Below, piece after piece: positions 2 through 10,148 of a DNA stretch of 11,327 nt. Where the stretch lies: positions 1 to 11,327 of the forward strand of contig JAZGDW010000027.1 in the NCBI GenBank assembly GCA_036478295.1, read 5' to 3'. Made by a program: the position numbers and the translations under genes. Numbering within the stretch: position 1 is the stretch's first letter; the number at the start of each line of letters is the position of its first letter. Source of the DNA: Candidatus Krumholzibacteriia bacterium (lineage in GTDB: Bacteria; Krumholzibacteriota; Krumholzibacteriia; WVZY01). The notes under the pieces are model-generated. The model saw only the letters and a list, made by a program, of their open reading frames with translations. It had not been told where the DNA came from and ran no database searches.

Positions 2-3000
2 GTTCTCTCGGAGACGGAGGTGCGGGCGAGGTTGACGGACCTGTATGGGAACGTGGTGCCGGGCGAGCGGGTGGACATTTTGATCAAGGATGGTGTGGCG
101 GACGGTGTATTGAAGTTGAACCCGGCGGATCCGAACGCGACGACGGTGGTGAACGCGACGGCGCGATTTGGGACGACGGACGCAAGCGGGGAGATATCGG
201 TGTTGTACGAGGCGCCGGGTGTAGCGGGTGCGGAGGACACGCTGGACGCGTTCGGATCCGGGGCGGCTCAGGGAGACGTGACGGATGTGATCTACACGAG
301 CGTGGCGAGCGGCGCGACCGATCTGCGCATCGTGTTTGTGGGGGGGGCTATGGCGCCGGCGGGGCAATCGTTTTCGTTTGGTATCGAGGCGGTGGATGGC
401 AACGGCAATATCGACACGGCGGACACGAGTTCGGTGGCGATCGGGGCGGATGTGGGTGGTGCGATAACGTTCAGCGAGACGGATTTCGGGGTGCCGGTGA
501 GTCAGGTTTCGCTGGCGGCGGGGGTGAAGGTTCTCTACGGGCGGGGGCAGAATGCGGGTACGTGGAACATCACAGTCAGCGATGAGGACACGGTGCTTAC
601 GGGCGCGACGGAGACGGTCGACATCGTGGATACGGGAGCGGTGGATCGTTACGTGGTCACGGCGGTGGACAGTGTGGAGGCGGGAGTTGCGTTCAGCGTG
701 AGCGTGGTGGCGCGGGATACGTTCGGCAACGCGGTGTCGGGGGCGAACAATGGGGTGACGCTGGTGGCCGTCGACGCCGGCGATACGACCCTGGTGATGA
801 GCGATACGCTGCTGGTGAGGAGTGCGACACTGAGTTCGGGCACGGCGTCGGTGGGAGAGACCTATCTAAGAGTGGTGCCCATCCGGGTTCGGGTGCGTGA
901 CGGCTCCGGCAACGAAGGGTTCAGCGGCCTCGTCAAGGTAACGCCCGCTCCGGCGTACCGCCTGGCGGAAGTGAGTGGCGATTCGACGGGCGTGTTGTCG
1001 GGGGGGACGGTAGCTCTGGCGGCGCGGGTGCTGGATACCTATGACAACCCGGTGGCGGGAGAGGTGGTGTCGTTCAGCGTGACGCTGGGTTCGGGGAGTG
1101 TCGACGTTCCGGGGCCGATGAGTGACGGGAGCGGGCGGGTGGATGTGAACTTTACGACGGGCGTGGCGGCGGGCGAGAACCGTGCGCGGGCGACGATCGG
1201 AGACGGCAACCCGGCGGGTCTGGAGAGTGTGGAGTTTGTGGTGGAGACCGAGGCGGGCGGGATCGCGAGTTATCAGGTGGTGCCAGAGAAGACGGCGGTG
1301 GTGGCAGGAGAAGTGATCAACGTAGAGGTGCGGGGGTCTGACGCGAACGGCAACCTGGTGACGAACGACAGCACGACGATCGTGAGCCTGGGCAGCGATA
1401 CGGGCAATGGTATCTACGGTGCCCCGGTGGGCGTGCTCCTGGGCGGGATCTACACGACGGCGATGTTCGATACGGTGGCGGAGAGCGTAATACTGACAGT
1501 ACAGACGCAGGGTGGAGGCCCGAGCGGAGCGAGCCCGGCCGTGAGCGTCAATCCCGCGACACCGTACGAGGTGGTGAAGATCTCCGGCGACGCGAGCGGG
1601 CTCGTGGTCGGCTCGGTCGCCGGACTCGAAGTAGAAACCCGGGATGCATTCGGAAATGTGACCCCCGGTGTCGTCGTCATTTTCGATGTGATGACGGATC
1701 CAGGGGGTGCGTTCATCACGGACGCGGTGGGCGACCCGAACGATGGGATTACCGTTGCTGATGCAGTGGGACGTGCGACGGCCAGCCTCACGACGTCGCT
1801 GACGGTCGGTGACAATACCGCGATGGCCAGCATCCTGGACGGTGTCCCGCCAGGGCTGGAAACCAGAACCTTCACCGTCAGTACGGTTGCCGGTGTAATT
1901 GCTGCCTACACTGTCACGGCGGGCACAACCGACCAAACCGCCGGTACCGGGGTGGGCTTTACCGTCGCCGCCTTCGACAGCGCGGGAAACGTTGTGGATG
2001 ATAGCACAACCCTTGTAACGCTTACCTTGGATCCGGGCAGTGGCGGGGTCTTTGCCGCGACGCCCATGGTGCTACAGAACGGCGCCTTTTCCACCTCCGT
2101 TTCGGACACCATCGCCGAGGTTATCCGGATTCGCGCGACGACGCAGGCCGGCTCGGCCACAGGCCTCAGTGCACCGGTCACCATACACCCGGACATGCCG
2201 GCAGGCGTCATTACGGCATCTGTTGTCCCGGATACGATTACGGCGAACGGGGGCAGCGCGTCCACCGTTATTTCTGATCCGATCCAGGATCGGTATGGAA
2301 ATGTCGCGTCATCGGGCGGTTTGATACGCGTTTCCGTGGACCAAGGTTCCATCGGCTCGCCGGACCAGGATCCGTCGACACCGGCCACCAACGAGCAGCA
2401 GATCGATGGGTCAGGTATCGTTGCCTTCGACGTTATCTCGGACAACGTGGCAGGCACGGCTACCGTGTCGATGACCAGCGTCGGGGGCAGCGCGTCGGGC
2501 GTTGCCAGTATCGCGTACGCGCCGCCGCCGGCATTCGTTTGCCTGGATGCTCCCGTACCATCCATTATCGTTCCCGGCGATTCGATTGCGTTCGCCGTGC
2601 CTGTAGAGAACACTTCCGCGACGGGCCTGGTTCTTTCCACCAGCACCGTGTTCGAATTCAACGATGGCACCCGGTTTTTCTCCGCTCCGCTCGCTGCCCC
2701 GAAGTGGATCGCTCCGTCGGTCACCGACACGCTCGTCTTTGAAGTCGCGGCAGTCGACTCGCAAATGGTCCCGACGGCGTATCAGCCGGTTGTTCGTTTT
2801 GCCGGCACCGACCAGTTCGGTGCCACCTTTGCGCAAACCTGCCAGTTGCCCGCCGCCAGCGTGCGCATGTCACTAATCGAGATCAGCTCGATCACCGCCA
2901 CTCCGCTCGTCAGCCGTGGGAGAACCGAAAACGTCATTGTCGGCATCACAAATCGCAGCTCCGACACCGCCATCATTGCAGCGGCCACACTGGCCATTCC

Positions 3001-4738
3001 GCTGGGTGACTACATATTCAACCCCAGCCCCGACCTGCCGGACACGATTTCTCCCGGCATGACTTCGTTTGTGAACTTTGCCGTTACCATACAACCGTCG
3101 TCGCCGCTGGTGACGACGTCGATCGACGCCTCGGTCTCGGGGACGGTAAACGGTCTCGCCGTGTCTGATTTGTCCCTGGCTCCCAATGCGCTGCCGCAGT
3201 GGACGATCGAATCCGCCGCGAGCCTGGCTTACGTAGCTGGTTCCCTCGCCCCTGGAATCGTTTCTCAGGGGCAGGCGCAGAGTCTCTCCGTCACGGTGCA
3301 GAACCAGGGACAGGCCACAGTGACCCTGGACACGGTTGCTACCACCCTGTCGTTTACTGACGGCGGCAACATCTATAATGCCGGTTTGGCGCAGGCGACC
3401 GCGCTCGCCGGAAATTCCAGCCAGTTACTGCAATTCGACACGGTTACCGTGCCGGCCGGGTTCACGCCGGGCGTCTACGGTGTGGCCCTGCATCTCGAGG
3501 GTGCGGAAAACGGCGGGCCGTTGGTCGCGGACCTGAACACGGGAGTATCTGGAGACTCCATACGTGTGGTGACTCCGGCGAGCGTCGCCTATCAGGCGGG
3601 CAGTCTCGCGCCGGTGGTCGTGAACAAGACCACCACGACATTTTTCGAGATCACCCTGCTGAACTCGGGCGGCGCCACGGTCGATCTGGATCCGGATTCC
3701 AGCCGTTTCTCTTTTGCCGGTGGGATCTACGATGCCGCTCTCGACCGGACCTTCGGCGCCACGGTGGTGGGTGGTGGCCCGTCGACCCTGCGTTTCACGG
3801 CCGAGCTCGTCAGCCCGGCAATCTCCCCGGGAGCCCATGCGCCCACGGTGCGGCTCGTCGGCGACGAGAACGGACTACCGTTTGCGGTGACCATTGGCCC
3901 GGGCGACAGCGTACAAGTACAGAACGCGGCCGATATCACGATCGAGAACACCTCGGCCGCTCTGGGCATTACGACCCGCGTGGTACCGAAGGGCGCTCGC
4001 GACGTGCGAATGATGGCCATGCGAATCGAAAACCCGGCGAGCAACACCGATTCGGTGCGACTCCGGTGGATCGACGTCGCGCTTCGCGACCAGAATCGCA
4101 ACCTGGTCGCCAACCCCGCGGCCACGGTCACCGAGTTCTACGCGCTCAAGGACGGCGTGCGCATAGACGGCGCCGTGGGACAGAATCCCATGCGCATACA
4201 GGTGGACGCACTTGGGCCCGGAGCAGTCATCCCACCGCAGGGTACGAGCGACATCGTCCTCGTGGTCAGCGTCGCAAGCAGCGCGACCCTCGAATCGTTC
4301 ACCATCGAGGTGCCCGGCTCCAGCGATATGCTTATCGAGAACGTCTTCTCCGCCGAGAGAATTTTCGTCGTCGACAAGGTGACGGGGCGGGATTTTGCGG
4401 GCAAGTTGCGATCACTGAGCCTCGTCATTCTGAGCGGCGAGTTTTCCGAGTATACACACAACTATCCGAACCCGTTTCACGCCGGTCGGGAGTCCACACG
4501 GATCGCCTATTTGCTGAGCAGCCAGGCCGACGTGTCGATCCGCATTTTTACGCTCGGGGGCGAAATAGTCTACGAAAGACGGTTCTCCGCCGGAGAGCCG
4601 CAAACCACGGCGGGCCCTCAAGAAGTCCTGTGGGACGGGCGCAACATGTCTGGTGAAGTGGTTCGAAACGGGCTCTACGTGTGCCGGGTTGAAGCCGGAC
4701 CCAACTCTGCGACCTTCAAGATTGCGGTGGCAAAATGA
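2..4738 (+). CDS. Large secreted/surface protein with tandem Ig-like (Big_1/invasin-type) domains and a C-terminal FlgD_ig / T9SS type-A-like sorting domain; 5'-truncated by the window
   Basis: The frame is open from nt 2 (VLSETEVRARLTDLYGN...), so GTG at 20 is probably internal, and no signal peptide is visible. The sequence is G/V/T/S/A/D-rich beta-strand type with recurring DxxGN-like motifs (DLYGN, DGNGN, DTFGN, DTYDN, DANGN, DAFGN, DSAGN, DRYGN). The C-terminus reads HNYPNPF...IRIFTLGGEIV...WDGRNMSGEVVRNGLYVCRV...KIAVAK-stop. Confidence 0.88.
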   Translation, partial: VLSETEVRARLTDLYGNVVPGERVDILIKDGVADGVLKLNPADPNATTVVNATARFGTTDASGEISVLYEAPGVAGAEDTLDAFGSGAAQGDVTDVIYTSVASGATDLRIVFVGGAMAPAGQSFSFGIEAVDGNGNIDTADTSSVAIGADVGGAITFSETDFGVPVSQVSLAAGVKVLYGRGQNAGTWNITVSDEDTVLTGATETVDIVDTGAVDRYVVTAVDSVEAGVAFSVSVVARDTFGNAVSGANNGVTLVAVDAGDTTLVMSDTLLVRSATLSSGTASVGETYLRVVPIRVRVRDGSGNEGFSGLVKVTPAPAYRLAEVSGDSTGVLSGGTVALAARVLDTYDNPVAGEVVSFSVTLGSGSVDVPGPMSDGSGRVDVNFTTGVAAGENRARATIGDGNPAGLESVEFVVETEAGGIASYQVVPEKTAVVAGEVINVEVRGSDANGNLVTNDSTTIVSLGSDTGNGIYGAPVGVLLGGIYTTAMFDTVAESVILTVQTQGGGPSGASPAVSVNPATPYEVVKISGDASGLVVGSVAGLEVETRDAFGNVTPGVVVIFDVMTDPGGAFITDAVGDPNDGITVADAVGRATASLTTSLTVGDNTAMASILDGVPPGLETRTFTVSTVAGVIAAYTVTAGTTDQTAGTGVGFTVAAFDSAGNVVDDSTTLVTLTLDPGSGGVFAATPMVLQNGAFSTSVSDTIAEVIRIRATTQAGSATGLSAPVTIHPDMPAGVITASVVPDTITANGGSASTVISDPIQDRYGNVASSGGLIRVSVDQGSIGSPDQDPSTPATNEQQIDGSGIVAFDVISDNVAGTATVSMTSVGGSASGVASIAYAPPPAFVCLDAPVPSIIVPGDSIAFAVPVENTSATGLVLSTSTVFEFNDGTRFFSAPLAAPKWIAPSVTDTLVFEVAAVDSQMVPTAYQPVVRFAGTDQFGATFAQTCQLPAASVRMSLIEISSITATPLVSRGRTENVIVGITNRSSDTAIIAAATLAIPLGDYIFNPSPDLPDTISPGMTSFVNFAVTIQPSSPLVTTSIDASVSGTVNGLAVSDLSLAPNALPQWTIESAASLAYVAGSLAPGIVSQGQAQSLSVTVQNQGQATVTLDTVATTLSFTDGGNIYNAGLAQATALAGNSSQLLQFDTVTVPAGFTPGVYGVALHLEGAENGGPLVADLNTGVSGDSIRVVTPASVAYQAGSLAPVVVNKTTTTFFEITLLNSGGATVDLDPDSSRFSFAGGIYDAALDRTFGATVVGGGPSTLRFTAELVSPAISPGAHAPTVRLVGDENGLPFAVTIGPGDSVQVQNAADITIENTSAALGITTRVVPKGARDVRMMAMRIENPASNTDSVRLRWIDVALRDQNRNLVANPAATVTEFYALKDGVRIDGAVGQNPMRIQVDALGPGAVIPPQGTSDIVLVVSVASSATLESFTIEVPGSSDMLIENVFSAERIFVVDKVTGRDFAGKLRSLSLVILSGEFSEYTHNYPNPFHAGRESTRIAYLLSSQADVSIRIFTLGGEIVYERRFSAGEPQTTAGPQEVLWDGRNMSGEVVRNGLYVCRVEAGPNSATFKIAVAK
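947..2194 (+). repeat. Two tandem copies of a two-domain (A+B) Ig-like unit, ~947-1555 and ~1556-2194 (protein-level repeat)
   Basis: Copy 1: APAYRLAEVSGDSTG...DTYDNPVAG...ATIGDGNPAGLES...GIASYQV...DANGNLVTNDSTTIVSL...DTVAESV...SGASPAVSVNPA. Copy 2: TPYEVVKISGDASG...DAFGNVTPG...ASILDGVPPGLET...VIAAYTV...DSAGNVVDDSTTLVTL...DTIAEVI...TGLSAPVTIHPD. Confidence 0.75.
2522..3925 (+). repeat. Second family of ~120-aa beta-sandwich repeats: clear copies at ~2522, 3221 and 3581, plus one divergent domain between the first two
   Basis: SLAYVAGSLAPGIVSQG...VQNQGQATVTLD...LSFTDGGNIYNAGL...PGVYGVALHLEGAENGGPL aligns with SVAYQAGSLAPVVVNK...LLNSGGATVDLD...FSFAGGIYDAAL...PGAHAPTVRLVGDENGLPF, starting exactly 360 nt apart. 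Weaker copy: VENTSATGLVL...FEFNDGTRFFSAPL...PTAYQPVVRFAGTDQFG. Confidence 0.7.
4454..4735 (+). other. C-terminal sorting domain (FlgD_ig / T9SS type-A CTD-like) of the giant protein
   Basis: The NYPNPF start motif, the IxIFTLGGEIV strand, the WDGRNxxGxxVxNGLY motif and the terminal KxxVxK match the known CTD/FlgD_ig pattern. Confidence 0.85.
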
Positions 4739-6666
4739 GAAACCACACGAGATCGAATTCGCGCCCCCCATGGCGCGCAACGGTTATCGCGTCGCTTGTG
4801 CTCGCGCTGGCCTTCGGAGGCTTGTCGGCGCCCCGGGATGTGTGTGCCCAGGACGGTGACGCGGGTACGCAGAGTGTTTTCTCCACGCTCGGGGCGGGCT
4901 CACGGGGAATAGCTCTGGGTCGCTCGTTCGTCAGTCTCGCCGACGATGCGAGCGCCATATACTGGAACCCGGCAACCCTCGGGAACGTCCAGAGCAAGCA
5001 GTTCATGGCTATGTACATGCCGCTCTTTGGAGATTTTACCGATGCCACATACACCTTTCTGGGTGCCGTGTACCCGACGCTCACCGCGGGAACGTACGGA
5101 ATTGGTTTTATGCGGGTTGGTGCCGACTTCGAGGGGTTCGACAATGCGAGTGTGCCGACCGGTACGCAGGAATACGCCGAGACACAGGTGCTGATCGGTT
5201 ACGCCTTCGAGCGACGATATCCCCACACGCACGGGTCGCTCGCCCTGGGCCTCAATTTCAAGATTGCCAACCAGCGGGTCGGGTCTCGATCGAGCACGTC
5301 TCCGGGTATCGACCTGGGACTCCGTTTCGATCCTGATTTTGCGTCGCGTTTTTCGTTTGGACTCAATTTTCAGGACCTGGTCGGGCCGAAACACCGGCTC
5401 GATCGCGAGGTGGACAAGACCGACAGGACAATCCTGACCGGGCTCGGCTACACCCATCGGCTTCGCAACGGTTCGGTGGTTCGGTTGCTCATGCAGATCG
5501 ACTCGCCACAACGGGCGGCCAGCAAGTTTCACGCGGGAGCCGAATACGTCTTTTCGAAATACGCCGCCCTGAGGGTCGGGGTTGACGACGGCAGCGTGAC
5601 CTTTGGCCTGGGAATAACCGTTAGAGACTTCGGGCTCGATTTTGCGTTTCTCAGCCGGAATACTGCGGGCTCGGCGCAGCCCGTTTCCTTCACGGCACCG
5701 TACGGAGAGACCTTGCTCGAGCAGCGACAAAAGCTGGCGGAAGAGCAGGAGCGCCGGGATGTTGCACTTATCCGGCGTGTGTTTGGCCGGCGTGTGCAGG
5801 AACACCGCGACCGGGCTCTGCAGGAGGAGGAGGTGGGCGACGAGGCCGCGGCGCTCGACGAATGGAAAATCGTGCTCGAGTACATGCCGGGAGACGAGGA
5901 AGCGACAGAGCACATGCAGGGGCTGACGCGGAGCCTAATCGAAGCCCAGAACGTTGCCAACCGGGACATCGAGCACCGTGCCACGATCAACACGCACTTC
6001 TCCCAGGGACTGCAGCTCTACCAGGAACGTGACTACATCCGATCGCGCCGGGACTGGTTGGCGATTCTCGACATGGATTCCACTCACGCCGAAGCGAAAA
6101 CGTACCTCGAGCGGACGCAGGCCAAAATCGATGAGACCATTGCCGATCATATTGCGAGCGCCGAGCAATTGGAGAAAGAACAACGCCTGACGGAGGCCAT
6201 CGGTGAGTGGAACAACGTTCAGATGTTCGACCCGGACAACGAGAGTGCCCGGGCCGCAATCGACCGTATACGATCCACGATAGAAGCCCATAGCCACAGC
6301 CTCGCACAGGTGGCGAGACGCCTGAAGGTTGTCAATCTCTACAACGCCGCGCTGCAGGACTACAACCGGGGTGAATACAAAGCGGCCATCAAGCAACTCG
6401 AGCACCTGCTGCAACAGGATGCCACCCATCAGGAGGCCCGGCAGCTGCACGCGATGGCCCAAAGGAAGCTCATTCCCTTGTCCAAAGAGGATGAAGCCGC
6501 CATTCGGCGTTTATTCCTCAAAGGAATGGGGCATTTCGCCAAGGATCACTACTCCGCCGCCATTCTCGAGTGGGGGAAGATACTGAAGATCGATCCGACG
6601 AACGAGAGCGTCAAGCGGAATATCGAAGAAGCGAGGGAACGTCGAAAGCAACTGGAGCGTCGGTAA
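4735..6666 (+). CDS. PorV/PorQ-family outer-membrane beta-barrel protein fused to a C-terminal TPR region
   Basis: Signal peptide (basic N-region, hydrophobic VIASLVLALAFGGL, VCA|QD cleavage at ~4849). Family motif GAGSRGIALGRSFVSLADDASAIYWNPATL. Amphipathic strands (GIDLGLRF, FSFGLNFQDL, FHAGAEY, ALRVG, FGLDFAF) run to ~5706, then ~320 aa of helical TPR-like repeats (AALDEWKIVLEYMPGDEEA; EAIGEWNNVQMFDPDNESA; AAILEWGKILKIDPTNESV). ATGA overlap with the upstream stop. Confidence 0.85.
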   Translation: MRNHTRSNSRPPWRATVIASLVLALAFGGLSAPRDVCAQDGDAGTQSVFSTLGAGSRGIALGRSFVSLADDASAIYWNPATLGNVQSKQFMAMYMPLFGDFTDATYTFLGAVYPTLTAGTYGIGFMRVGADFEGFDNASVPTGTQEYAETQVLIGYAFERRYPHTHGSLALGLNFKIANQRVGSRSSTSPGIDLGLRFDPDFASRFSFGLNFQDLVGPKHRLDREVDKTDRTILTGLGYTHRLRNGSVVRLLMQIDSPQRAASKFHAGAEYVFSKYAALRVGVDDGSVTFGLGITVRDFGLDFAFLSRNTAGSAQPVSFTAPYGETLLEQRQKLAEEQERRDVALIRRVFGRRVQEHRDRALQEEEVGDEAAALDEWKIVLEYMPGDEEATEHMQGLTRSLIEAQNVANRDIEHRATINTHFSQGLQLYQERDYIRSRRDWLAILDMDSTHAEAKTYLERTQAKIDETIADHIASAEQLEKEQRLTEAIGEWNNVQMFDPDNESARAAIDRIRSTIEAHSHSLAQVARRLKVVNLYNAALQDYNRGEYKAAIKQLEHLLQQDATHQEARQLHAMAQRKLIPLSKEDEAAIRRLFLKGMGHFAKDHYSAAILEWGKILKIDPTNESVKRNIEEARERRKQLERR

Positions 6667-6675
6667 GGCGACACG

Positions 6676-9120
6676 ATGGGAACTGGATCGGGCATAGACC
6701 AGAAGAACGTCAGGATTCGTGAACTGACCATCCCGGCCGACGAGAGCCAGCTGAGTCGCGTGCGGGAATTTGTCGCAACGGTGTGCACCGAAGCCGGTTT
6801 CACCGCGGGCGAAGTAAACAACACGAAACTGGCCGTCGACGAGGCCTGCACCAACATCATCAAACACGCCTACGACGACTCCAACGGTCGTATCCGCGTC
6901 CGCGCGAGCGTCAGCCCGGGCGCCGTGGATTTCTCCTTGATCGATCGAGGCAAGCGTTTCGACTTCGCCGCCGTCGAAGACCCCGACCTGGAGCATTACG
7001 TCGAAACGGGAAGAAAAGGCGGGCTGGGCGTATTCCTTATCAATCGCCTCATGGACCGGGTGGAATACCGCACCGTTCACGGCAGCAACGAACTCCTGCT
7101 CTCGAAGACCAGCCTCGCAGTGGCGTCGGGGGCGATTGCCTCACGGATTAGCTGGCGGGGATCGCTGCGCTACCGGTTTACGCTGAGGGCCAGTCTGGGT
7201 CTCTTTGTGATCATCGCCAGCATATGGGGTTACATTTTCGTGGGCCAGACCGAGGGGATCAAGGAACAACGAACCACTCACTGGATGGAAAAGAGGCGTC
7301 TGGCCGAAGACGTCGCCAACAAGAGCAGAGCGCTGCTCCTCAATCCGCAAATGTACTCGATCGAGCAGACGACGTTGACCGCCTTCATTGCCCGAATGGT
7401 GGACGGCAACGAAGATCTCGCCTACCTGAGGGTGGTGGACCTGGACGACGGCATACTCTCCTCCGCCAACATCGACGAAATCTTTACCAAATTTTCAAAA
7501 AAGGACGGGCACGTGCTGCTCGAAGAAGGCAACGGGGTGCGATGGATGCAGATCGAGTTCAACGGTGAAGTAACGCGTGATATTCGCTTTCCCGTACAGG
7601 TGAGAAATCAGGACACCGGCCGCCTGATCGCTGTAGGCAACGTATACGTGGGCGTGTATGAACACGCCATGTATCGCGCAATCACGGACCCGAGGCCGCT
7701 GACCACCGTCATCATCCTCATTAGTTTTCTGGCCGGCATTCTCCTCATTGTGACCCTGGTGACGGTGTTCGTAAAACCCTTACAGGTGCTGACGGAAGGC
7801 GTGCGCGCCATCGGGCAGGGCTCGCTCGACAGCAAGATCGACGTCGGTGGTCCGGCCGAGATCGGGGCCATCGCGACTGTCTTCAACGACATTACCAAGA
7901 AGTTCAGAGAGGCTCAGGTCAACCTACTCGAGCAGGAAAAGCTCCAGAAAGAAATCGAGGTGGCGAAGCAGATCCAGCAATCGCTCCTGCCCCGCGACTA
8001 CCCCGCCGTCAGCGGTTACGATATCGCCCCCTATTACCAGGCGGCCAAGGACGTCGGGGGTGATTACTACGACTTCGTCCACGTGGACGAGGGCGCGCTC
8101 GGGGTCGTTGTCGCCGATGTTTCAGGAAAAGGCGTACCGGGGTCGCTGGTCATGACCATGATCCGCACTGCTCTCCGCATGGAGGCGAGGGGAAACAAGA
8201 ATGCATCCGACGTCATGGGCAGGGTGAATGCTTTTGTGACGGACGACATGAAGAAAGGAATGTTCGTCACGATGTTCTACGTCATTCTTGATTCCAAGAA
8301 CCGGACGATCAGTTACGCGAGTGCTGGACATAACCCCATGATCCTCTACCGTGGTGAGGGACGGGAGATCTACTTTCTCAATCCGAAGGGCTTCCCGGTC
8401 GGCATCAGCCTGCCCGACGCCTCTCTGTTCAACCGATCGATCGGTCTCGAAAAGATCAAGCTCAAGAAGGACGACATGCTCGTTATCTACACCGACGGTG
8501 TAACCGAGGCAATGAACGAAAAGCGTGAGCAGTATGGGGAAGAGCGACTTGTTCAGCTCATAGAGGAAAACGGCCATTTTCACCCCACAAAATTCATCGA
8601 GGAACTGGAGAAGAGTATCAAGGCGTTCACAGGTGGCTACGCGCAGAACGACGATATCACGGTCGTGGCGATAAAGGAAAAACTCGGTGCTGACGACGTG
8701 CTCGCCGGTATACGAAAAAAGCTCATCCAGCTCGTCGAGGTGGGAGGCATGAGCGTAAGGGCGGCCTGCAAGAAGATGAACGTGTCGCCGACAACGTACT
8801 ACCGTTACAAGAAACGCGTGGCCCTGCTGGGAGAAAGAGGACTGAAGAACAAGATTCTTCGGGAGGATACCGATCTGAAGATGATGACGGTGGAGGAGCG
8901 GAAAGCGATATTGAAAATCATCGTCGCGCACCCGGATTTCGGGGCCAAGCGAATTAGCGAGGCCTACCACCGGCGCACCAATGGGGGGAGGCAACTGACT
9001 GAGCGCATGGTCTACGACGAGTTGAAGCGGCTCGACCTGAATACGAAGGAACGTCGCCACGACTACGTACGGCGAATCCCCTTGTTCGACCAGGAAGAGG
9101 CACTTCTCAAGGATTCATAG
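6676..9120 (+). CDS. Membrane-bound partner-switching regulator: RsbW-like HATPase + 2 TM/periplasmic sensor + HAMP + SpoIIE (PP2C) phosphatase + C-terminal HTH region
   Basis: HATPase boxes KLAVDEACTNIIKHAY, IDRGKRFD, GGLGVFLINRLMD. TM1 ~7189-7245, TM2 ~7696-7773. HAMP KPLQVLTEGVRAIGQG...EIGAIATVFNDI. PP2C motifs AKQIQQSLLP, VGGDYYD, VADVSGKG, SAGHNP, YTDGVTEA, NDDITVV. HTH MSVRAACKKMNVSPTTYYRYKKR. Starts 9 nt after the previous stop. Confidence 0.92.
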   Translation: MGTGSGIDQKNVRIRELTIPADESQLSRVREFVATVCTEAGFTAGEVNNTKLAVDEACTNIIKHAYDDSNGRIRVRASVSPGAVDFSLIDRGKRFDFAAVEDPDLEHYVETGRKGGLGVFLINRLMDRVEYRTVHGSNELLLSKTSLAVASGAIASRISWRGSLRYRFTLRASLGLFVIIASIWGYIFVGQTEGIKEQRTTHWMEKRRLAEDVANKSRALLLNPQMYSIEQTTLTAFIARMVDGNEDLAYLRVVDLDDGILSSANIDEIFTKFSKKDGHVLLEEGNGVRWMQIEFNGEVTRDIRFPVQVRNQDTGRLIAVGNVYVGVYEHAMYRAITDPRPLTTVIILISFLAGILLIVTLVTVFVKPLQVLTEGVRAIGQGSLDSKIDVGGPAEIGAIATVFNDITKKFREAQVNLLEQEKLQKEIEVAKQIQQSLLPRDYPAVSGYDIAPYYQAAKDVGGDYYDFVHVDEGALGVVVADVSGKGVPGSLVMTMIRTALRMEARGNKNASDVMGRVNAFVTDDMKKGMFVTMFYVILDSKNRTISYASAGHNPMILYRGEGREIYFLNPKGFPVGISLPDASLFNRSIGLEKIKLKKDDMLVIYTDGVTEAMNEKREQYGEERLVQLIEENGHFHPTKFIEELEKSIKAFTGGYAQNDDITVVAIKEKLGADDVLAGIRKKLIQLVEVGGMSVRAACKKMNVSPTTYYRYKKRVALLGERGLKNKILREDTDLKMMTVEERKAILKIIVAHPDFGAKRISEAYHRRTNGGRQLTERMVYDELKRLDLNTKERRHDYVRRIPLFDQEEALLKDS

Positions 9121-9318
9121 ACAATGGGCCGGCAGACACCTGTCCGGTTGGCAAGCGGTGGTTGCAAAATGCGAACGCCTGCGGTGGGTCGGGCGAGACC
9201 CAGCCGGCTCCGCGCGCGAGGTGCGCGGGAGAACTGGCCGGAAAGCGGCTGGAGCGGGACAAGGTCTTCCTGCCGTCGAAACGGGTGGTTGGACTGACTT
9301 TTGCTTCACTCGGTGGTT

Positions 9319-9323
9319 GGAGA
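9319..9323 (+). promoter_or_regulatory. Shine-Dalgarno-like site for STAS gene 1
   Basis: GGAGA 8 nt upstream of ATG 9332. Confidence 0.6.
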
Positions 9324-9331
9324 ACCTAAAC

Positions 9332-9709
9332 ATGGAAAAACTCATAATTTCTGAAGAGACGATCTCAGGGACGAATCCCATTACGCTGTTGACTCTCAAG
9401 GGCACGATCGAGACGACAAACGCGACGACTCTGGAAGAGGTACTCGTACACATTCTCTCTAACGACCGCTACCGCATCGTGGTGGATCTCTCCGAGGTCA
9501 GCTACATAAGTTCCGCGGGCTGGGGCATCTTTATCAGTGAAATCAAGCGTGTACGGCGCAAGCGCGGTGACATCAAGCTCGCTGCGATGAGAGCCGGCGT
9601 CCGGGAAGTCTTCGACCTGCTCGAGTTCAACAACATTTTGCAACTCTACCCCGGCAAGGGCGAGGCGATCAGGGATTTCGAGGCTCCGGTCGGGGCCAAG
9701 GTGGACTGA
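9332..9709 (+). CDS. STAS-domain anti-sigma-factor antagonist (RsbV/SpoIIAA family), copy 1, 125 aa
   Basis: LTLKGTIETTNATTLEE...IVVDLSEVSYISSAGWGIF...GDIKLAAM...VREVFDLLEF. Start reassigned from GTG 9158 to ATG 9332 because of the SD site and the length match to the paralog. Confidence 0.9.
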   Translation: MEKLIISEETISGTNPITLLTLKGTIETTNATTLEEVLVHILSNDRYRIVVDLSEVSYISSAGWGIFISEIKRVRRKRGDIKLAAMRAGVREVFDLLEFNNILQLYPGKGEAIRDFEAPVGAKVD

Positions 9710-9767: not shown

Positions 9768-10148
9768 ATGGCCGTCCACGGCATTGTTGTCAGCGTTATT
9801 CTCGGCAAAACAGCCGAAGACGTATCCACGTTGAAGGTCAGCGGCTACCTGGACATCACTACGGCCGGCGAACTGGAAAACGCACTCGCTGGCCTCCTCG
9901 ATAACAACTACCACAAGATCGTCGTGGACCTCTCGGGCGCGACCTACATCAGCTCCGCGGGTTGGGGCATTTTCATCGGTGAAATCAAGGGCATTCGCGA
10001 CCGCGGCGGTGACCTGAAGCTGGCCGGAATGGTCGGCGACGTGTACGAGGTCTTCCAATTGCTCGAGTTCCAGTCGATTCTCGAGGCCTACTCGACGGCC
10101 ACGGAGGCCGTCGACGCCTTTGCCCGGTCGAGCGCCACCCCGGGTTAG
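9768..10148 (+). CDS. STAS-domain anti-sigma-factor antagonist (RsbV/SpoIIAA family), copy 2, 126 aa
   Basis: LKVSGYLDITTAGELE...IVVDLSGATYISSAGWGIF...GGDLKLAGM...VYEVFQLLEF...EAVDAF. Confidence 0.92.
   Translation: MAVHGIVVSVILGKTAEDVSTLKVSGYLDITTAGELENALAGLLDNNYHKIVVDLSGATYISSAGWGIFIGEIKGIRDRGGDLKLAGMVGDVYEVFQLLEFQSILEAYSTATEAVDAFARSSATPG

Follow-up and report, generated by a model that had tools for sequence, protein, structure and literature searches.

Domain organization of a fused kinase/phosphatase and its locus

The window analysed here is a stretch of 11,327 nucleotides from a Candidatus Krumholzibacteriia bacterium (contig JAZGDW010000027.1). On its forward strand, the open reading frame (ORF) at 6676–9120 encodes, according to ORF and Pfam analysis, an inner-membrane bifunctional kinase/phosphatase of 814 amino acids (P0001) that ends in a helix–turn–helix (HTH) tail. 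The same 814-amino-acid form also occurs in P0002–P0004. The tail is an old, fixed and conserved bipartite HTH of the IS481-transposase type, and is almost certainly a functional, conserved domain.

The domains follow one another in the order RsbW-like kinase, transmembrane segment (TM), sCache-like domain, TM, HAMP, PP2C and HTH tail. The RsbW/SpoIIAB-like GHKL serine kinase domain (residues 19–144; 6730–7107, forward strand; Pfam HATPase_c_2, E = 8.5e-29) has intact N-box and G-box motifs in its sequence, at residues 55, 90 and 115. Pfam and hydropathy delimit the sensor region (7183–7890, forward strand), which comprises TM1 (~170–192), an sCache_3-like region (205–337), TM2 (~343–366) and HAMP (365–405); the sCache_3-like region is predicted to be periplasmic, its match lying below the Pfam cut-off. 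The SpoIIE/RsbU-type PP2C phosphatase (residues 471–667; 8086–8676, forward strand; Pfam SpoIIE, E = 2.3e-49) carries metal-binding Asp motifs, D463, D481, D607, D659 and D660, that are invariant in 108 homologs. The SiaA profile also matches the protein (E = 1e-18). Placed after TM2 and HAMP in a chain with two TM segments, the HTH tail would be cytoplasmic.

All neighbouring genes in the window lie on the forward strand. Upstream are the 3′ part of a gene for a giant immunoglobulin (Ig)-repeat surface protein with a C-terminal FlgD_ig (2–4738), which opens the operon in relatives, and a conserved neighbour encoding a PorV/PorQ-like barrel plus TPR protein (4735–6666; NF033709, E = 4e-25). 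Of 80 loci, counting those on short contigs, 68 have this neighbour. Downstream lie two STAS proteins of the anti-sigma antagonist type (9332–9709 and 9768–10148), both over the TIGR00377 cut-off, with Ser61 and Ser63, respectively, in the phosphorylation loop; these are presumably the phosphorylation sites, by alignment to SpoIIAA/RsbV. With kinase, phosphatase and STAS motifs all intact by sequence, a working partner switch is likely.

The tail is a bipartite HTH of the IS481-transposase type

The earlier note had described the tail, at 8710–9075, as an in-frame continuation of the phosphatase after its final PP2C motif, NDDITVV. The module is indeed found there, at the end of ORF 6676–9120, and begins slightly earlier, at ~8692. 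NDDITVV stands at residue 658, 15 residues separate it from RKKL at residue 680, and the bipartite HTH covers residues ~673–800. Searched alone, the tail exceeded the curated Pfam cut-off for HTH_28 (E = 4e-8), HTH_29 (E = 5e-8) and HTH_23 (E = 5e-7), all of which had been anticipated; HTH_32, also expected, fell below it (E = 0.009). The proposed likeness to the N-terminal region of IS481/IS3/IS630-type transposases held up in NCBIfam. Positions 2–113 of the 284-position IS481 profile (NF033577) align to the tail with E = 1.6e-15 and cover both HTHs and the linker, while IS630 and IS3 profiles match at 1e-7 and 4.5e-7. By these profile matches, homology of the tail to the IS481 N-terminal DNA-binding region is shown. 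The full IS481 profile has a cut-off of 224 bits, and the protein scores 57.

HTH1 occupies 8692–8850 (forward strand). Its recognition helix, S704–R714 (8785–8817), retains basic residues, and in the 108 homologs the motif S-P-x-T-Y-Y-R-Y-K-K-R is conserved at 69–99% per position (S704, 92%; T707, 87%; Y708, 93%; R/K710, 98%; K/R712, 99%). HTH2 (8887–9033, forward strand; P-x-x-GAKRI ... VYDELKRL), placed by alignment and model, has a recognition helix that is acidic at D/E781 and E782, where aligned transposases show R and a hydrophobic side chain. HTH1 and the GAKR of HTH2 retain their basic surface residues, and the median net charge is +6. The closing helix, L-N-T-x-E-x-R (9037–9075, forward strand), is common to copies fused to GT2 glycosyltransferases, described below, and to one IS481 subgroup.

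The predicted structure of the tail has two helical domains, with a linker of low confidence between them (pLDDT 86.8, pTM 0.52). The best Foldseek rows were bipartite transposase-type DNA-binding domains, namely TnsB (probability 0.85–0.98), the Pax6 paired domain and MuA, all with E > 0.05. A wide fold search and the ESM Atlas returned generic HTH matches (Z ≤ 6.4) and generic HTH_28/29/32 clusters, respectively, and a PDB sequence search with the tail profile gave nothing informative (best E = 0.001). A model of PP2C plus HTH reached a pTM of 0.80, compared with 0.52 for the isolated tail, which suggests, only indirectly, that the tail packs on the phosphatase domain. Mean-field covariation for PP2C plus HTH (271 rows) and kinase plus HTH (198 rows), at an effective depth of ~100, gave noise without a clear intra-domain contact pattern.

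The fusion is fixed and under purifying selection

We surveyed the distribution of the tail with phyla assigned according to GTDB; the window's own genome is 91% complete. Strong tail matches occur in 87 of 200 other genomes of the phylum, and weak matches in 9 further genomes, those retrieved being transposases. A PP2C ortholog was found in 86 of the 200, all within the tail-positive 87, and the extra genome has its match at a contig edge. Families f3 and f6 (99 genomes) gave neither tail nor PP2C ortholog in those searched. In 80 of 80 GTDB loci PP2C stands before the tail. Single-copy tail matches also occur in three further GTDB phyla (3 of 6, 6 of 151 and 20 of 101 genomes). The labels Zixiibacteriota and Gemmatimonadota appear on two seed records. 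A separate tail search gave 131 clusters, whose source names indicate Krumholzibacteria/Latescibacterota; among the 120 listed, 117 have SpoIIE, judged by eye, and none has an integrase core. One record titled Patescibacteria (L090), from a 3.2-Mb genome, holds a full Krumholzibacteria-type locus, and its label is probably wrong.

As the earlier note had anticipated for a co-opted domain, orthologs retain the fusion (86 of 86 other genomes with the PP2C ortholog) with dN/dS well below one, at ~0.1–0.25. Median dN/dS was 0.22 for the tail versus 0.115 for PP2C (172 of 351 pairs), and, by half, 0.14 for HTH1 and 0.24 for HTH2 (105 of 210 pairs). Three pairs of short forms without ParA, the window's genus included, gave 0.10–0.14. 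The comparison of tail and PP2C excluded saturated pairs and 3 of 30 loci (partial or with a stop), and the values are rough estimates in GC-rich DNA.

No DDE domain follows the HTH module, as the stop comes 14 codons on and Pfam finds no rve match, and no inverted repeats flank the tail, both as previously claimed. Neither tblastn nor blastn found a second copy in the genome. GC3 is 0.73 in the tail and the same in the PP2C part. A single public contig (run X1), possibly from a related sample, spans 8396–9532 without a gap, including junction and stop. An apparently split gene in another genome (G079) proved to be an N-gap artefact. The 814-amino-acid protein is not an IS481 element: it is single copy, lies in fixed synteny and has neither DDE domain nor terminal repeats.

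Relatives of the tail and its origin

Searching 1.84 billion representatives with the tail profile gave 2,871 matches. The best 150 comprise 71 that follow the PP2C end motif, 59 tandem double copies and 20 fragments or others, and a DDE-like motif occurs in none of these 150. A GT2 glycosyltransferase domain was found in 34 of 39 scanned non-PP2C matches. Of 20 representatives whose labels were looked up (16 GT2-type), three are Patescibacteria or Woesebacteria and two other. By sequence comparison, the nearest relatives of the tail are the tandem copies carried by membrane GT2 glycosyltransferases, and several of these bear the label Patescibacteria. Profile–profile probabilities were 99.9% for the GT2 units and 99.2–99.5% for two IS481-type groups. 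In the IS481 subgroup of L134/P0269–P0388, both HTHs, the linker, the P-x-x-G-x-x-R turn and the closing helix align over 112–126 columns.

In trees, PP2C tails form one group (SH-aLRT 98–99) that pairs with the GT2 units (90–94, not starred), and a quick tree nested them among IS481 rows with support of 87. In the approximately unbiased (AU) test, the tree with IS481 rows held together is not rejected and has the higher likelihood (p-AU 0.59). Rows P0117 (frameshifted) and P0146 (partial) were dropped, as were P0194 from the quick tree and L274 from the AU-test tree. The idea of a co-opted IS domain therefore stands as far as homology and an old, conserved fusion under purifying selection are concerned, while the trees do not show that an IS was the donor. 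A bipartite HTH layout is typical of DDE transposases; because of this and the Foldseek rows we favour the IS-to-host direction and regard an IS as the likely donor.

The GT2 family (P0158, P0160, P0163, P0169, P0179, P0182, P0184, P0192, P0195, P0200 and others) has N-terminal tandem IS481-like double-HTH units, some members have giant C-terminal extracellular-type regions, with proteins of up to 2,949 amino acids, and the family looks undescribed. A metagenome search with one fusion (P0160) returned ordinary IS481 transposases only, at lower scores, and a search of 72,556 plasmid records gave one weak IS481 match.

Conserved gene order and an associated ParA

Across relatives the order is giant Ig-repeat protein, PorV-like plus TPR protein, kinase/phosphatase–HTH, an optional block of ParA, small gene and TPR gene, then STAS, STAS, vWA and LTD. 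Most relatives of the kinase/phosphatase are ~1,400 amino acids long, with three STAS domains C-terminal to the HTH. In most, the chain finishes with a helix of the form W/F-x-x-Y-x-x-K/R-L, whose presence goes together with that of an orphan Soj-like ParA encoded next to the fusion gene. The gap at 9121–9331 is the site at which relatives have the three fused STAS domains, this helix, ParA, the small gene and the TPR gene, and we read it as a deletion in the window's genus, which has kept the HTH and lacks ParA and the helix.

ParA is present in 60 of 80 loci; it is closest to Soj (E = 7e-44) and keeps the arginine of D-A-R-T. At L034:11420–12181, L160:10739–11497 and 58 more loci it lies immediately behind the fusion gene. 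Among 74 distinct complete C-termini from 117 loci, 60 have both helix and ParA, 13 neither and one ParA with a variant helix that did not match the regular expression; one of the 13 (L089) is probably frameshifted, with ParA further on. Joint absence occurs in three separate groups. From this sequence pattern, the helix is a candidate for a new ParA-partner peptide. No close ParA was found in the window's genome (best matches 33–35%).

Several further features of these loci were observed. The giant Ig-repeat protein recurs at L190:2–14107 (over 4,700 amino acids in L190 alone) and L192:7905–20000, and its FlgD_ig, beside a PorV/PorQ-like barrel plus TPR protein, looks like type IX secretion system (T9SS)-type sorting in Krumholzibacteria. 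A conserved cluster further upstream (L184:473–11208 and relatives; contig C139 of the window's genome) contains genes for a ~900-amino-acid enzyme, which we take to be PPDK-like, a CDP-alcohol phosphatidyltransferase, a small protein with an MshEN-type c-di-GMP motif, a second PorV-like protein and small lipoprotein-like proteins. In one other phylum (L160:12224–16625 and L166:11864–18097), the STAS gene is followed by genes for a diguanylate cyclase and for XrtA/PEP-CTERM polysaccharide export, an arrangement like that of SiaABCD.

Promoter and sigma factors

Upstream of the giant gene, all 17 regions examined (L178, L180–L195) contain a sigma54 site (GGCAY-N5-TTGC). It occurs only on the sense strand, and 500 shuffles gave a mean of 0.07 and a maximum of 2. 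An eighteenth fetched region (L179), with a differing neighbourhood, was excluded. The site was absent from six stretches of the other phylum, two of them without a proper upstream region. A sigma70-like promoter lies upstream of the sigma54 promoter, and IHF-like sites were seen by eye in several regions. The operon promoter is likely to lie here, upstream of the giant surface-protein gene and outside the window; in the window's genome this region falls in the assembly gap between contigs C139 and C190. In one relative (L184:11290–11600, genome G029), four to five tandem ~68-bp repeats were seen by eye in the intergenic DNA upstream of the giant gene.

The intergenic targets suggested in the earlier note look poor. 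The gap between the second STAS gene and the vWA gene has no sigma54 site in 52 loci, where only terminator and sigma70-like signals were seen by eye, and 9121–9331 is the site of the relatives' STAS, ParA and TPR genes. The observation that the window encodes no sigma factor holds for the window genes. It is weak evidence, because an RpoS/group-2-like sigma and 12 extracytoplasmic function (ECF)-type sigmas are encoded elsewhere in the genome. The only two region-3 sigmas there are a 582-amino-acid frame, RpoD-sized, and a 300-amino-acid RpoD/RpoS-like protein, the RpoS/group-2-like sigma of contig C218, which could be a target held by the kinase. A SigB/F/G-type sigma was not found in this 91% complete genome, and sigma54 activators gave 15 strong matches. 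A separate, second RsbW-like and STAS pair lies beside an ECF sigma and a probable anti-sigma (L177:3043–5197, contig C8).

A model for the output of the switch

In the model that we propose, the periplasmic sCache-like domain would sense an envelope cue, plausibly tied to the operon's PorV-like/TPR and giant surface proteins. HAMP would then set PP2C activity against the N-terminal kinase, and hence phosphorylation of both STAS proteins. The HTH pair, lying against PP2C, would supply the DNA-binding output of the complex in place of a SigB/F-type sigma, either by binding an operator or by anchoring the complex to the chromosome. Judging from the sequence, the tail probably binds DNA. There is about an even chance that the partner switch gates it as a DNA-binding output or as an anchor, and a sequence-specific transcriptional output is possible but somewhat doubtful. 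A prediction for a kinase dimer (residues 8–150, two copies) with the tail (670–802), modelled on the idea of a pseudo-sigma, scored 0.23 against a mark of 0.32 and speaks neither for nor against binding.

Several observations weigh against this model. The recognition helix of HTH2 has turned acidic, and one divergent member (L044:7687–11520, genome G063) has lost the HTH linker and the closing helix. The trees give no direction of transfer, as the one that holds the IS481 rows together had the higher likelihood. A sigma54 promoter requires an enhancer-binding protein, here an unlinked one, which means that the tail could not activate its operon on its own. With the sigma54 site masked, the operator search returned only the sigma70 promoter and a weak palindrome (score 156, compared with 138–145 in three shuffles). 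Finally, the Tc1/mariner HTH captured by nematode F-box proteins seems to act in protein binding rather than transcription (PMC12062965).

The nematode precedent bears directly on an alternative in which the HTH pair is a protein-interaction or allosteric domain without DNA binding, which packs on PP2C or binds STAS or kinase and tunes the switch. Output would then run through the STAS proteins, as in SypE/SypA and SiaABC, or through the kinase holding an RpoS-like sigma, of which the genome has a group-2-like example. The linker after PP2C is very short and conserved in length, E668 is invariant, and the higher pTM of the PP2C–HTH model and the acidic HTH2 helix fit such a role. So do the diguanylate cyclase and polysaccharide export genes after STAS in one other phylum, as in SiaABCD, and several systems whose output is a STAS protein with an unknown target (PMC8256260). 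By contrast, conservation among the exposed positions of HTH1 peaks, in all four phyla, at the basic and hydroxyl residues of its recognition helix, and of the two halves HTH1 is under the stronger constraint. We consider a purely protein-binding tail rather unlikely.

Alternatively, the tail could be a chromosome or nucleoid anchor rather than a transcription factor, with the ancestral chain a membrane-bound ParB-like protein whose HTH binds DNA and whose C-terminal helix engages the orphan Soj-like ParA, thereby positioning a sensor or secretion complex. The frequency of the Soj-like ParA with its arginine, its pairing with the C-terminal motif in 60 of 74 C-termini and their joint absence in three groups would fit, as would the related module on membrane GT2 enzymes. 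ParA/MinD ATPases position protein cargo via partner proteins, and known ParA partners mostly use an N-terminal region (PMC11407121); the latter point, the lack of a close ParA in the window's genome and the non-independence of kin, which leaves the co-occurrence resting on about three losses, count against an anchor. Members without ParA and helix in the window's genus, in family f7 and under the Gemmatimonadota label keep the HTH under selection, so a ParA-coupled anchor is not the whole story, and we judge it unlikely.

A recent or decaying, function-less IS scar, the outcome that the earlier note had named as fatal to co-option, has a negligible chance even with IS481-type transposases in 32 of 201 genomes of the phylum and the degenerate L044, as distribution and selection refute it: the tail is single copy, without IS ends and host-like in GC3, and is not unique to this genome but found in all 86 orthologs and four phyla, with dN/dS of 0.1–0.25.

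Taken to its furthest, the model of a DNA-binding output would have a single domestication of an IS481-type module in bacteria, after which two inner-membrane envelope proteins unrelated to each other came to carry it: the partner-switch kinase/phosphatase of four or more phyla and, as tandem copies, the GT2 enzymes of Patescibacteria. The module would give the sigma-less switch a direct DNA output and, ancestrally, act with an orphan ParA via the C-terminal helix to tie sensor and chromosomal site at the membrane. We regard this full scenario as a long shot.

Comparison with known systems

The tail and the N-terminal region of IS481 transposases (NF033577) share two HTHs, a linker, the turn and the closing helix. 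The tail differs in being without DDE domain and terminal repeats, in single copy, behind PP2C, acidic in its HTH2 helix and in a tree group of its own. ToxR/CadC-type regulators join a membrane sensor to a cytoplasmic OmpR-type N-terminal winged helix, with no kinase or phosphatase. Like them, the 814-amino-acid protein is a membrane sensor with a cytoplasmic domain of DNA-binding type, here by sequence.

Vibrio fischeri SypE, Pseudomonas aeruginosa PA3346 (HsbR) and Mycobacterium tuberculosis Rv1364c likewise carry an RsbW-type kinase and PP2C on one chain and act on STAS proteins; the available part of PMC8256260 mentions no DNA-binding domain for them. The top fold match, PDB 3ke6, was set beside these fused kinase/phosphatases. 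In the 814-amino-acid protein, however, the two enzymes flank a TM–sCache–TM–HAMP sensor, and the double HTH follows. P. aeruginosa SiaABCD (10.1101/674879) is alike as a PP2C/kinase/STAS switch that controls aggregation, with a diguanylate cyclase instead of a sigma, but it consists of separate proteins, has no HTH and uses a threonine target. We conclude that the 814-amino-acid protein is a variant of the fused partner-switch kinase/phosphatases and that its DNA-binding module is probably domesticated.

In the open-access literature listings, which do not cover subscription journals, we found no bacterial signalling enzyme with a fixed HTH of IS origin and no description of this family or fusion. 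Host–transposase fusions are well documented in eukaryotes. As in the protein studied here, SETMAR and Caenorhabditis F-box A2 consist of a host enzyme or adaptor on which the DNA-binding module of a transposase has become fixed (PMC9062482, PMC12062965). Those proteins are eukaryotic and Tc1/mariner-derived, SETMAR with a whole transposase, whereas the 814-amino-acid protein is bacterial, IS481-like and membrane-bound. Labels such as HTH_28/29 or 'transposase-like' on its relatives do not denote IS debris. Many non-canonical partner switches have outputs that are not known (PMC8256260), and a switch with its own DNA-binding module, if our model is true, would be a new type of output. Its second occurrence, on GT2 enzymes, together with the helix linked to ParA, suggests that the module has a broader, so far undescribed use at the inner membrane.

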